NCBI GenBank assembly: GCA_964016885.1 | Contig: OZ024743.1 | Location: forward strand, 313,906,001-313,970,000 | Length of the DNA stretch: 64,000 nt | Reading direction: 5' to 3' | From: Eledone cirrhosa | Taxonomy: Eukaryota | Part shown: positions 6,216-62,838 of the stretch, piece by piece | Numbering within the stretch: the stretch's first letter is position 1 | Layout of the letters: every line of letters starts with the position of its first letter | The notes under the pieces: generated by a model | Database searches by the model: none | What the model was told of the DNA's origin: nothing | Seen by the model: only the letters and a program-made list of their open reading frames with translations | Program-made: the position numbers and the translations under genes

Positions 6216-8415
6216 ATTTTATACATTTTCACCGATATATTATTGTTTGTGTAGATCTGCATGTTTTGGGTTATATGTGAACATGTACATATGTTTCTAA
6301 ATCTACAATATGCAGATATTGCTGAATTTCTGAAATGTTTTACATAATTTTACATTTCTACTAATGGACTGTACTCGCAATTTCCTAACTAGCCGTCCTG
6401 TTTCTAGTTCTGTGAAGCCAAGCTCTTCAATATTAATGTATGTGTATATGTATACGTATATATATATATGTATGTGTGTATGTATGTGTATATATGTGTA
6501 TGCATGTTTCCCTATATAATACAATAAGCTTGATGCAGTAAAAAGTCCTTTCTACTGTTTATTTTATTCGATCAATCCTCCTGTTTTTTCGTTTGTTTTA
6601 AAAGATTTCCTGTGATGCATTTATAACATATTTCATACATACTTATAATGTGCTGATTCTCTTGTTAGTTACATTGAAAGAGCCCTTCCTTGGAAAATAT
6701 TGGAATTGACATGAAACATCGCCATCATATGGAAATTTCTTGATGAATGCAATATAGAAAGATTAAGGTACAGCAAATAGGCTTATAGATTTCAGGAAAG
6801 CTAACCTTGTTTTTTTTTTGCAAAAATATTCCTGAATACTTTTCAAACACTATCATTCATTCGTAGTTGCAGTTCCAATAGAATTATATCCTTAATGTTC
6901 TTTTTTTCTGGTTCAATCACCGTACTTAAAGAAAAGATATATTTGTTTCCATTTAACTATTACCAGCCATTTGACTACATTCCGATTTTTGCTAGTTTAT
7001 GATCAAGCGGGAATTACAGAATAATTTTCCTTGCTCTGTTCAGCCATTTCTTTTTCCTATTCAAATGAACCATGGTTCTAAAAGCATTTTTTTTTCTCAA
7101 TGCTCGTGCTATCTCGATTGGAAGAAAAGCATTAAACTTTCTTTGATCCTTCTTCATTCGAAATCCCTCAAGCTGATCATATAAAATGCGTCAAACGTGA
7201 CAAAAAATAAAACAAAACCCCAAAACAGCCAAACAAAAAATCCCTGATTATTATGTATTTCAGCTCCCACGAGAATGTTTTACAGATACTTTCTTACTAA
7301 TAAATAACTTTCAGATAATATTTAAAAAAAAAATTAATCGTTACAAATGGGAAAATTTCCATTACCTTTATTTCCAGCTACACAGGATACCATTTTCCTT
7401 GGAAATCTTAAGAATAAAGAAAAAAAAAATTCAATTTGATTTTCTATTCTTCTATATTCTTTGGGGAAATTTGTATTTATCCCGAAATTCCATTTGGTTA
7501 TGAAAGCGGTGTTTACTTTCGGGCTTGAAAAAAGCTGTTCTATAATGATAAAGCGAAGATGAACGTTTAAAATCAAGTAAAAATGAAAAAAAATGGGGGA
7601 AATCCTTTTTTTATAAAAATTAAATTCTTTCTTTACTTCAATACATTTTAATAAATGGTTCTCATATTATTCCTTCTATCTTTTCTTACATAATATTATT
7701 ACGTTTTTTTTTCCTCATGCACATCGTTTAAAGTATTTTCTACAAGCTTCCACTTTTAACTGAAATATGCAATCTTAAAATGATCCTTATTGGTTTGTAC
7801 ATATGATATTTTGTTTCGGATAATTCCTTCCAATGATTACCCGAAATTACTTATGTCCAGAATTGTATATTTTGAGTGCTCAGATAGAATTGAGTATTCC
7901 TCAGAAAAATATGTCATTAATATAACACTAAAATAGAAATATTGTGATACAATTTGTCGTGGATGAACATTTAAATTAAGATTCCAGTCCATTTTATAGA
8001 CATCCTCATAGTGTATGTCTACCAAATTTTACTCTCAGCGTTTGTGTTGACACTGGGCTTTGGTAAAATGCTCATTCCGAAGAGACCTCGTGATATTGAA
8101 TCAAATTTTGTATCCAGCTGCCTACAAATACACACACACACACACACACACACACACACACACACACACACACACACACACACACACACACACACACACA
8201 CACACACACACACACACACACACATATATATATATGTGTGTGTATATAAATTTGAGTATGTGAGTGTGTTTGTTAGTTACCGACCACTTCAGTATGCACG
8301 GTGGACCACTCAACGAAGTGCGCATGTGCGTCTGTTTACTCCGGAGTAATTTAAAAACAGAAAAAAACAACAGAGGTAAACTTTGTTCCATGATTATATT
8401 TTTCTATTTAAGTTC

Positions 8416-8478
8416 TAGCTGCCTGATGAGGTCATAGCTGTCAAATAATGGTCATTACCGAAATACATATAATAGCTA
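8416..8478 (+). ncRNA. Type I hammerhead ribozyme (long stem II) in a solo pLTR-like insert ending at (TA)n
   Basis: tagctgc-CTGATGA-ggt..acc-GAAA-tacata-TA-atagcta. Stem I has 6 pairs with a mismatch next to the core. Same layout as the pLTR HHR at 49748. Confidence 0.7.
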
Positions 8479-8661
8479 ACATGAATAAACGAAGTTATTT
8501 TAACCTGTTGACTTACACTTCTTGTTTATATATATATATATATATATATATATATATATATATATATATATATATATAACATACAGATACATCCTATTAA
8601 CAGTTAATGTTCCTGCTAAGCGCAGACACTCGTTTGCCGAGTGTTTATCTCCATCTCATTA

Positions 8662-8772
8662 GTAATTGTTTCTACTTTTGGCACAAGGCCATCAATTATC
8701 CTAGTGTATTACTGGTGCTTTAATTTATCGACCCCGTAAGGATTAACGGCAAAGTTAAACTCGGTGGGATTT
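8662..8772 (-). mobile_element. SINE copy (3' half), same family as 5837-6215
   Basis: Reverse-complement match to the SINE core and tail (aattgtttctacttttggcacaaggcc..ttatcgaccccgtaagga..ggcaaagttaa). Confidence 0.8.
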
Positions 8773-61089: not shown

Positions 61090-61220
61090 TATATATATAT
61101 ATATATATGTACATGTACACACACATATGTGTGTGTGTGTGTGTATATATATATATATATATATATATATATATATATAGTAAGAATATTTTCGAAACAG
61201 CGAGTGGGTTTGAAATTATT

Positions 61221-61573
61221 ATAAATGTAAGCTATCGCCGTATTTTGACTAAATAAATTAAAGAAATTATTTAGCCTGATAGTGGGGTTAAAAACCCTCG
61301 GAGAAATGGAAAAAAATGAGTATTGACGTACATGGGACTCGAACCCACATCTTTCGTTATCCGGACCACTGTGATACTATTTACACCAACACATCATGCG
61401 ATGTGTTTGTGTAAATGGTTCACAGTGGTCCGGATAACGAAAAATGTGGGTTCGAGTCCCATGTACGTCAATACTCATCTTTTTCCATTTCTCCGATGGT
61501 TCTTAACCCCACTATCAGGCTAAATAATTTCTTTAATTTATTTAGTCAAAATACGGCGATAGCTTACATTTAT
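61221..61573. mobile_element. Foldback of about 350 bp with a tRNA-like B box in each arm
   Basis: Near-perfect palindrome centred near 61397. ggttcgagtcc at 61449-61459 and its reverse complement at about 61336-61346. (TA)n on the right. Confidence 0.8.
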
Positions 61574-61593
61574 ATATATATATATATATATAT

Positions 61594-62838
61594 GAAACAG
61601 TTTGTCCTCATCAGTGGCCTTCCAACCGTCGTTGGCATTTCGTCGCATTAAAGGCCATATACCTCAGGTTGGTGCGAGCAACGGCTAAAAAGAGTCGTTG
61701 GGACACGTAAATAAGGGGGACGCTAGGGTAAACAAACAAAATGGTTTAAGCAACAGAAAGTGATGAAGAAGAAACAAGTCCCAGATTTCTATGAATATAA
61801 ATTCGGTGGAATCGTGAACGAGAGAATAAGGACCATCAAACCTGGTTGAAATGTGAGCAAGGAAGGAATTTCGCACAGGTCTAACGGGAGGAAGAAGGGG
61901 TCTGGTCTGCGAATTCGGTAAACATAAGTTCTGTGAAGTCGCAGACGAGAGAGAGAGAAAAAAATTCATACCGGCTTGTCCAAGTGCCCGCGAGAAAAGG
62001 ATTACGGACAGGTCAAACGGGAAGAAAGGGGAGGAGGAGAGGTAGTGACAGAGAGGGAGTGAGTGAAAGGTGACTTTTTTTAGCCGTTGCTCGCACCAAC
62101 CTGAGGTATACGGCCTTTAATGCGACGAAATGCCTTCGAGGGTTGGAAGGCCACTGATGAGGACAAACTTTTTCATATGTAACCCATTTGCAGCGCCGCA
62201 GCTCCATTATTATCATATTTACACATATATTTTTTTCTCCGCTGCCACCAGTCTGTTTCGTTCTTTGTGTCTTTACCCTTTCTAGCAGTCTCTCTCTCTC
62301 TTTTAGCCTCTTCCTCACCTTTCACTCACTCACTCTCTGTCACTACCTCTCCTCCTGCCCTTTCTTCCCGTTTGATCTGTCCGTAATCTTTTTCTCGCGG
62401 GCACTTGGCCAAGCCGGTATGAATTTTTTTCTCTCTCTCTCGTCTGCGACTTCACAGAACTTATGTTTACCGAATTCGCAGACCAGACCCCTTCTTCCTC
62501 CCGTTAGACCTGTGCGAAATTCCTTCCTTGCTCACATTTCAACCAGGTTTGATGGTCTTTATTCTCTCGTTCACGATTCCACCGAATTTATATTCATAGA
62601 AATCTGGGACTTGTTTCTTCTTCATCACTTTCTGTTGCTTAAACCATTTTGTTTGTTTACCATAGCGTCCCCCTTATTTACGTGTCCCAACGACTCTTTT
62701 TAGCCGTTGCTCGCACCAACCTGAGGTATATGGCCTTTAATGCGACGAAATGCCTACGACGGTTGGAAGGAGGCCACTGATGAGGACAAACATTTTCATA
62801 TGTAACCCACCTGCAGCGCCGCAGCTCCATTATTATCA
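61594..62838. mobile_element. Inverted plus tandem element with a 620-bp period and a hammerhead-like CTGATGA box
   Basis: tagccgttgctcgcacc at 62081 and 62701. 61594-62073 is the reverse complement of about 62317-62799. (TA)n flanks. Confidence 0.85.

Follow-up and report, generated by a model that had tools for sequence, protein, structure and literature searches.

A duplicated end motif of Hydra-clade Penelope-like elements and the probable origin of foldback inserts at TA tracts in Eledone cirrhosa

A 64-kb stretch of the Eledone cirrhosa genome (assembly GCA_964016885.1, contig OZ024743.1, positions 313,906,001 to 313,970,000; hereafter the window) contains broken Penelope-like elements (PLEs) of the Hydra clade together with short inserts, many of them bearing hammerhead ribozymes (HHRs) and ending at (TA)n tracts. 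In related Hydra-like loci a motif, RCTC-N-YGAGYRCT, lies between the hammerhead and the open reading frame (ORF), commonly in two copies, and the end of the 3' pseudo-long terminal repeat (pLTR) falls just before it. The position of this twin motif is observed; that it sets two reverse-transcription start sites, which make the one-sided tail of the inserts, is likely. Taken as a whole, the short inserts are probably products of Penelope-type target-primed reverse transcription primed twice at TA, mostly stumps of coding elements and, in few cases, non-coding passengers. The first-pass annotation had seen here a guild of non-coding HHR elements and Penelope reverse transcriptase (RT) donors, all at (TA)n and with one insertion signature. 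That observation is partly confirmed; the interpretation given to it is supported in part, most of it being anticipated by published work.

The window is 66% AT and rich in repeats. Tests used the window, 78 related Hydra-like loci (64 families) and the reads and contigs of four sequencing runs. A metagenome scan with a single RT piece as query gave no matches; with an alignment as query it gave the 78 related loci. Apart from PMC11167929, published work is cited for parts of the papers concerned, and comparisons hold for those parts. Features are designated as in Table 1.

The twin end motif

A hammerhead on the sense strand was present in 59 of the 78 related loci; in the 19 with a measured distance it precedes the ORF by 141-222 nt. 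Alignment of the interval between ribozyme and start codon revealed GCTCY followed, after 8 to 22 nt, by RTYGAGCACT. The paired motif occurs in the last 90 nt in 35 of 45 families, the corresponding figures being 13 of 757 for ORF windows and 8 of 45 for complemented controls. Two copies were found in 33 of 42 loci, with a spacing of 54-82 nt in 31; within a fixed 130-nt window, 25 of 37 loci had two copies, whereas the opposite strand had them in 9 of 37 and ORF windows in 1 of 510. Where the 3' pLTR end lies inside the contig, it falls 0-12 nt before the motif in 19 of 24 loci (null 7%), and two of the five misses are family duplicates of matching loci.

The same arrangement is found in the window, where the 3' pLTR of the near-complete element H stops 2 nt before the second of its end motifs. 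A matrix trained solely on the related loci gave seven matches of at least 12 bits (1.0 per shuffle): three in the pLTRs of H, three in tails (one each for I, C and G0) and one across G's ribozyme. At D, a version with one mismatch lies 2-4 nt past the short end. Tails measure 51-81 nt in seven of ten inserts, matching the motif spacing. The first stem pair is A-U in four of the window copies. Since a single pair covaries (see below), recognition of the motif, whether in RNA or in DNA, may depend on its sequence more than on a hairpin. We found no description of the twin motif in the literature, supplements aside; the main text of PMC8557442, likewise without its supplements, has no such motif and no wording of stem-loop, hairpin or microhomology.

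The tails of J, K and M (61180-61219, 62802-62837 and 44233-44288) open with AAC(C/A)CAC, 2-10 nt past the short end, a motif recognised post hoc. This stretch is possibly a second start signal, by analogy with the AC-rich stem-loop of Poseidon. Inserts that have a 40-nt tail but lack the end motif may depend on a different PLE clade.

Coding elements of the Hydra clade

A search with a profile built from 17 of 25 homologues identified four coding pieces (20602-21200, 36251-37392, 48607-48251 and 49993-52170), three of which are 34-43% identical to H; Pfam did not recognise the Hydra pieces. H spans profile positions 1-698 in four frameshifted pieces, and its ORF (49993-52197, with three frameshifts) is a single one that encodes RT with GIY-YIG at the C terminus. 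Its direct pLTRs are 95% identical and each carries a sense HHR (cores 49756 and 54038). H has RIRWR and SDKT motifs, as do the homologues; CxCX5C is present in H, the 20602 copy and P, and CxxC with CxH in H and the 20602 copy, being decayed in the 36248 copy. No CCHH was seen in the Hydra pieces by eye. H and the 20602 copy are bounded by TA, with boundaries also set by eye. The Hydra clade is defined by RWK/RWR, a change of DKG to DKT, CxCX5C, CxxC, CxH, no CCHH, a canonical HHR and (TA)n insertion (PMC8557442), and the four coding fragments are, to judge from their motifs, broken members of this clade. The claim that a Penelope-type RT/GIY-YIG is present is upheld, membership coming from motifs; that it targets TA is likely, (TA)n insertion being published for the clade (PMC8557442). 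Because all four coding copies are broken, an active donor would lie outside the window.

Two ribozymes first described as parts of non-coding elements belong to these copies. That at 49748 lies in a pLTR of H and is the ribozyme of this element; the motif at 21420 is the end of the 20602 copy, about 190 nt past its ORF and 65 nt ahead of TA, the usual position of the pLTR ribozyme in related loci. The window scan gave no passing HHR in P or the 36248 copy. Both H and P carry about 2 kb of non-coding 3' sequence. P is a rearranged partial tandem whose arm stops 1 nt before a GCTC/GAGC motif of its template; the inverted-tail layout attributed to it (as 46049-48880) holds for the inverted arm itself (46819-47077 / 48616-48881), but the arm ends 228 nt from TA.

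Layout of the inserts and their TA tracts

The common form is TA, tail, arm, then the head-to-head arm and TA, with both 3' ends facing outward and the arms unequal; F is a foldback without tail. Most inserts had been described as an inverted partial copy followed by direct copies. This holds at 13551, 14309 and 61594 (D, E and K, to which direct copies are confined), whereas direct copies are missing at 10640, 11140, 31706 and 54245, which are foldbacks of two arms, one of them tailed. The insert at 21597 meets TA on one side but not the other, and the right side of that at 30450 reaches (TC)n ahead of TA. The insert at 61594 has the inverted arm and direct copies but lacks a complete hammerhead.

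Enrichment of (TA)n over background, as proposed, was supported within the window. The set of inverted pairs (n = 16) comprised 14 from a masked self-comparison, plus M and E; two rows pairing short interspersed elements (SINEs) were dropped, and so were the pair 10061/11186, the convergent 30343/31337 and every row of simple repeats. The outer edge lay within 12 nt of (TA)5 or longer in 12 of the 16 pairs, against a mean of 0.56 and a maximum of 5 in 20,000 placements, a null that takes no account of inserts nesting in shared tracts. The other end met TA within 90 nt in 11 pairs (null 0.09). Under a stricter (TA)8 threshold these counts were 10 outer edges and 8 opposite ends. In addition, TA lies at most 300 nt 3' of the cleavage site in eight of nine HHR inserts (background 0.25, p about 1e-4).

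Of the 16 junctions with known template continuation, seven end on at least four alternating T/A bases in common with the tract (background 2.5%), and the long ends of tandem units show the same microhomology. Where the two arms meet, they overlap by 6 nt (D) and 7 nt (E). As the arms of B, G, I and E extend through the cleavage site, the template would have been uncleaved or circular; uncleaved RNA is the main substrate in vitro (PMC11167929).

Several short repeated ends also abut TA (19560-19684, 27380-27502, 45880-45989, 37782-37822, 42843-42883, 38931-38990 and 55314-55350). An old copy of the C/I family, 75% identical (10061-10181, minus strand), ends away from any TA tract. Three related loci (L025 2263-2400, L055 136-472 and L067 2507-2956) have extra HHR-bearing pieces against TA beside the coding element.

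Hammerhead ribozymes

The descriptor allowed C3-G8 or U3-A8 cores and a pass required a score of at least 21; its stem III score over-counts palindromic loops, to an equal extent in shuffled windows. It gave 20 matches in the window, against none at 19 or above in eight block-shuffled windows: A (8423), B (10748, minus strand), D (13753), nine in E, D2 (21679), F (30697, minus strand) and two each in G, H and I. The cores of B and D are of the U3-A8 type, and the HHR of B had not been listed before. Seven of the nine types listed earlier fold properly (8416, 13749/21675, the 466-bp unit, 30661, 31748, 49748 and 55161), but 13146/21420, with mutated cores and no proper stems I and III, and 56852, decayed and with five surplus nt between stem I and core, do not.

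Similarity including the ribozyme relates D to D2 (z 44), E to F (z 10.7) and G to H (z 6.8). On these comparisons the HHRs form nine sequence types in six or seven lineages, G and H being perhaps akin. A derivation of G from the family of H, suggestive with the ribozyme, was not retained, the similarity without it not being significant (52 of 1000 shuffles).

No ribozyme reached the Rfam gathering threshold anywhere in the window; among the best 150 of 277 sub-threshold matches, ribozyme support is confined to HH9 and to the 466-bp unit (E 8e-6; 37 bits, with gathering set at 52). At the base of stem II, three unrelated HHRs (54304, 30697 and 21423) have U facing U in place of G10.1-C11.1. 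U3-A8 cores and HHR pairs on opposite strands are already known (PMC4209133), and the HHRs described there have in common with those of the window the short palindromic stem III, the U3-A8 variant and the opposite-strand pairs; in contrast to them, families I, F and 21420 carry U-U at the base of stem II. In a squid, 235 hammerheads are reported (PMC6962438).

Stumps and passengers

Since the Hydra elements here have non-coding 3' regions of about 2 kb, and coding copies account for two ribozymes of the earlier list, most short foldbacks are indistinguishable from pLTR stumps. Most are likely 5'-truncated ends of coding PLEs, and few are likely non-coding passengers. For A, B, C/I, G, G0, M, N and T both origins fit the window data, and these can be truncated pLTRs. 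Judged by sequence, D, E and K (repeated, ORF-free whole units), F (a relative of E) and J (with a tRNA-like head) are credible passengers. The description as a guild of non-coding HHR elements is overstated: evidently non-coding are only the 319-bp and 466-bp arrays, which have HHRs, and J and K.

D and E are tandem non-coding units with a type I HHR, as in retrozymes. E has about 11 ORF-free units with 0-3 differences each, and nine of its ten full HHR copies pass; in D it is the first unit that passes, stem I of the second being broken. One variant is common to R2 and R5, two units of E. A period-3 structure of this array was rejected as proof of a multimeric template, for it comes down to that single variant. 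The octamer motif ATGCAAATTAG is kept about 100 nt 5' of the hammerhead in E units (16633) and F (30778) despite their strong divergence, and the window has four other octamers, about the chance number. Newt satellite 2 has a snRNA (small nuclear RNA)-type promoter; by analogy, the octamer of E and F is a possible promoter of this type.

K and J are evidently non-coding and without hammerhead: the scan gave no complete HHR in either, and Rfam no ribozyme at E up to 5. K has only the 5' half (CUGAUGA) of an HHR core. Readings of K and J as twister, HDV-like or permuted hammerheads were rejected, with no Rfam support and no consistent fold. J has the head and high copy number of a tRNA-derived SINE, with an Rfam tRNA match of 30.8 bits, and ARAGORN found no tRNA genes at J. 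Its 3' tail has no significant match among all ends in the window (best z 3.0), so that any partner retroelement may lie elsewhere. Summed contig depth in run X1, perhaps the source sample, is a measure distinct from copy number; it was 3e4-2e5 for J, 1e4-2e5 for K and 4e5-9e5 for T, against 9-15 in single-copy flank. Head-to-head junctions of J type at another place (61460/61464) were found in 8 contigs of X1, 1 of X4, 25 reads of X13 and 24 of X14, so the J foldback has been remade in other copies.

Table 1. Coding copies, end motifs and short inserts in the window (positions from its first letter; a dot marks features on both strands or unoriented).
Feature	Position	Strand	Tail (nt)	Description
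H	49167..54232	+		Near-complete Hydra-clade PLE, pLTR-ORF-pLTR; TA at both ends
Twin end motifs of H	49860..49975	+		ACTC..GAGT at 49860, GCTC..GAGC at 49953
20602 copy	20602..21488	+		5'-truncated Hydra copy (GIY-YIG); TA at both ends; HHR-like motif near 21423, decayed
36248 copy	36248..37431	+		5'-truncated Hydra copy (RT end and GIY-YIG); TA-rich tract shortly past ORF
P	46044..48881	-		Hydra GIY-YIG fragment (48607-48251) with inverted arm 48616-48881; TA reached at 46043
A	8408..8526	+		Single HHR, core 8423; cleavage site 55 nt ahead of (TA)26; no inverted arm
B	10580..10949	.	63	Foldback with U3-A8 HHR (10748, minus); tail on left arm
C	11135..11315	.	81	Foldback, same family as I; arms truncated inside HHR; end motif in tail (11250)
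13146 end	13146..13305	+		Truncated copy of 21420-type end; 87-nt extension to TA; HHR decayed
D	13551..14276	+	27	319-bp non-coding HHR unit (U3-A8), 2.1 copies; inverted 82-nt arm; TA at both ends
E	14310..19393	.	69	466-bp non-coding HHR unit, about 4.2 copies on minus and 6.7 on plus strand, head to head; ends 69 nt apart, both at TA; differences counted from reference unit
D2	21587..21870	+		D relative with C3-G8 core and inverted arm; TA on left only
F	30453..31172	.		Foldback, distant E relative; HHR cores 30697 (minus) and 30859 (plus); arms end at same place
G0	31331..31558	.	69	Decayed foldback; tail begins with end motif (31397, minus)
G	31654..32017	.	51	Foldback; HHRs 31810 (minus) and 31916 (plus) resembling those of H
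M	44233..44349	.	56	Small foldback, no HHR inside; TA at both ends
I	54245..55295	.	69	Foldback; HHRs 54304 (minus) and 55166 (plus); end motif in tail (55232); arms 100% identical over 190 nt
N	55387..56943	+		TA-bounded stretch, decayed HHR (56857); internal palindrome 55588-55756
J	61180..61570	.	40	tRNA-headed foldback, no HHR; tRNA-like parts 61324-61395 (minus) and 61400-61470 (plus); TA at both ends; high-copy family
K	61594..62837	.	40	Non-coding unit of about 620 bp, inverted arm and partial direct copies; high copy
T	63590..63928	+		Very high-copy repeat, partial HHR (core 63675, 6-bp stem II); TA at both ends

Other features of the window

A second copy of D2 type lies at 44378-44503 (minus strand). 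The 3' end of T resembles M, with a similar copy at 12005-12104 (minus strand). The tail of G0 recurs at 30343-30398, at the end of a stretch (28700-30398) with a Gag-like ORF1, a zf-CCHC knuckle (Atlas 0.93) and no RT, which ends in these 55 nt and then TA. A TA-bounded stretch, 11471-13305, has a decayed ORF with a CCCH-like finger fused to the PLE-type end at 13146; its upstream sequence presumably includes an end resembling ORF2 of a long interspersed element (LINE). The reading of 13146 as the coding end of LINE ORF2, made from a motif we take to be of that kind, was kept solely for this upstream sequence, where Atlas gave a weak Myb-like match; because the 13146/21420 end has two TA-bounded ends and its extension carries a weak motif, the reading was given up for 13146 itself.

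A 3.8-kb element at 57271-61089, inserted in a TA tract, starts with TC, ends with a hairpin and CTAG and contains internal 166-bp repeats; we take it to be Helitron-like. The pieces at 43256-44196 (TA on both sides) and 44650-45100 are presumably RTE-like 3' fragments. A broken non-LTR element at 39095-42660 (minus strand), with RT (Pfam RVT_1) and CCHC, lies between TA and (TATG)n and is, from motifs as we know them, presumably R4/Dong-like; a GCTC..GAGT match to the Hydra motif lies just past its ORF (39218, minus strand, 10.9 bits). A SINE-like family (5825-6223, 8663-8773, 33599-33781 and 47514-47606), which includes one tandem dimer, does not end at TA. An octopus has recently active Penelope, RTE and Dong-R4 families, and the part of that paper covered mentions neither ribozymes nor TA targets (PMC13282606).

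A double-priming account and its alternatives

The account that we regard as probably correct has four steps. GIY-YIG would nick (TA)n on both strands, as published for the clade. Each nick would then prime on the RNA at one of two start sites, aided by 2-4 nt of UA/AU pairing; in Hydra elements these sites would lie 0-12 nt 5' of RCTC-N-YGAGYRCT, present twice about 60 nt apart in the interval from hammerhead to ORF. Both cDNAs would extend backwards across the hammerhead region, the RNA being uncleaved or circular, then halt and become linked through short overlaps. The product would read TA, tail, arm, arm and TA, its tail as long as the distance between the start sites. Finally, tandem units (319-bp, 466-bp with its relative, and about 620-bp) and the tRNA-headed element would enter in trans, and the PLE family mobilising them need not be the same one. 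Double priming at a pair of TA nicks is favoured because there are two motif copies, their spacing matches the 51-81 nt of the tails, and two internal starts, with both strands cut and extended, occur in vitro in another clade (PMC11167929). Self-priming on an antisense template, proposed elsewhere (PMC3846280), is a possible alternative.

A stronger version is conceivable and is put forward tentatively. Here RCTC-N-YGAGYRCT 3' of UAUA would be a portable duplicated signal that docks a dimeric RT at two sites and builds insert and tail in one event, so that any RNA so marked, such as circular retrozymes or tRNA-headed SINE-like RNAs, could be written into (TA)n; the RT might also lengthen TA by re-copying UAUA.

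A number of results speak against the double-priming account. Among 18 window ends the strict motif comes after no more than 5, namely those of C, I, G0, H and the arm of P; E, J and K lack it, as do B, G and M. An Infernal sequence-only model finds just H at E <0.01, and the stem has 4 bp of which only the first covaries (G-C 52, U-A 5, unpaired 3; n = 60). (TA)5 or longer follows only 7 of 24 related-locus ends, and the right end of D2 and the inverted arm of P lie away from TA. The J family consensus has 2 nt of junction microhomology, not 4 (place 61222). No empty site was obtained: among the joints listed for 61160-63900 in the four runs, TA repeats being skipped, none crosses K. G resembles H significantly only with the ribozyme counted, and none of the four coding copies is intact. 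The Helitron-like element and an RTE fragment are likewise TA-bounded, so TA tracts are not specific to PLEs.

Mobilisation of small ribozyme RNAs in trans by one such enzyme, as first suggested, is supported for a few families, the 319-bp and 466-bp elements, whose tandem units have the inverted-plus-tail layout of PLEs; most listed elements are inseparable from 5'-truncated pLTR ends. Nor is a single mobiliser shown, since the 466-bp, roughly 620-bp and tRNA-headed units lack the strict Hydra end motif. All short inserts could instead be 5'-truncated or internally deleted PLEs, with arrays grown by slippage or unequal crossing-over and nothing mobilised as its own RNA. Stumps of H or P would indeed look non-coding, given some 2 kb of such 3' sequence; opposite-strand HHR pairs 100-700 bp apart have been ascribed to truncated PLEs (PMC4209133); and the variant common to R2 and R5 fits local duplication. 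We nevertheless consider this unlikely. In E, 11 nearly identical ORF-free units are spread over two arms that meet head to head, and its two TA ends are distinct; F, a diverged relative of E, likewise has no ORF; and J is of high copy number and starts with a tRNA-like head.

The tracts themselves might largely be products of insertion, a telomerase-related RT slipping on UAUA and adding (TA)n, or short AT sites expanding later, the true target being AT-rich DNA. The template has TATA/ATAT where the start sites fall, the alignment shows TATA-like bases ahead of the motif, most related loci are flanked by short AT-rich stretches, and Poseidon cleaves ATT in vitro (PMC11167929). This reading is nonetheless distinctly improbable: the tracts also house Helitron-like and RTE inserts, which are unrelated, inserts lie nested end to end where they share a tract, and many of the 102 tracts of (TA)5 or longer in the window have no recognised insert. 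It is highly improbable that TA tracts are merely fragile, low-cost sites that capture any RNA at breaks, with asymmetry arising from later microhomology-mediated arm deletion, since, although several element classes share tracts and short ends lie on internal TATA, as repeat-mediated deletion would leave, none of nine SINE-like 3' ends in the window is at TA, ends keep a fixed distance from a conserved motif in many families and other samples, and the microhomology extends to the long ends of tandem units.

Comparison with known systems

Together with the coding copies, the inserts occupy about 23 kb of the 64-kb window, which makes them a genuine source of palindromes beside TA tracts. Most of the components described here are already published: Hydra PLEs, their (TA)n bias, the inverted pLTR with tail, hammerheads, and retrozymes as PLE derivatives. 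PLEs generally show inverted 5'-truncated copies, partial tandems and a one-sided tail of 30-40 bp (PMC8557442). The window elements agree with the Hydra clade in motifs and HHR and probably in (TA)n insertion, whereas their tails measure 27-81 nt, against 30-40 there, and the non-coding 3' sequence of H, some 2 kb, is a further difference. The origin of the two 3' ends and the tail was left open in that work, which called for in vitro study (PMC8557442).

Such study exists for Poseidon of Anolis, in which both strands are cut and extended, two internal RT starts define the tail and the template is uncleaved RNA (PMC11167929). Its start is an AC-rich stem-loop inside the ORF without homology to the target; here, in contrast, a different, repeated motif lies upstream of the ORF, with short TA microhomology. 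In Adineta vaga, pLTRs drive mobilisation in trans and head-to-head inverted pLTRs carry a tail (PMC3846280). The window inserts share with them the inverted arm with tail and the carriage of unrelated sequence by cis-acting ends, but the cargo in Adineta vaga is a host gene with target-site duplications, and here small non-coding units in TA.

Non-LTR retrozymes of animals likewise consist of non-coding tandem units, a few hundred bp long and with a type I HHR, and have been proposed as non-autonomous derivatives of PLEs (PMC7229834; bioRxiv 10.64898/2026.07.22.740005), deriving from them and riding on them (bioRxiv 10.64898/2026.07.22.740005). Unlike those described, the arrays of the window, known here from DNA alone, bear the PLE layout of inverted arm, two 3' ends and TA target. 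Retrozyme arrays and a tRNA-headed high-copy element in this layout are structural evidence of PLE enzymes copying other RNAs, which goes beyond co-occurrence and pLTR similarity. What our analysis adds is this layout and the twin end motif. A motif shared across the clade, present in two copies about one tail length apart and lying against element ends, could assign orphan non-coding elements to their mobiliser, and offers a direct mutational test.

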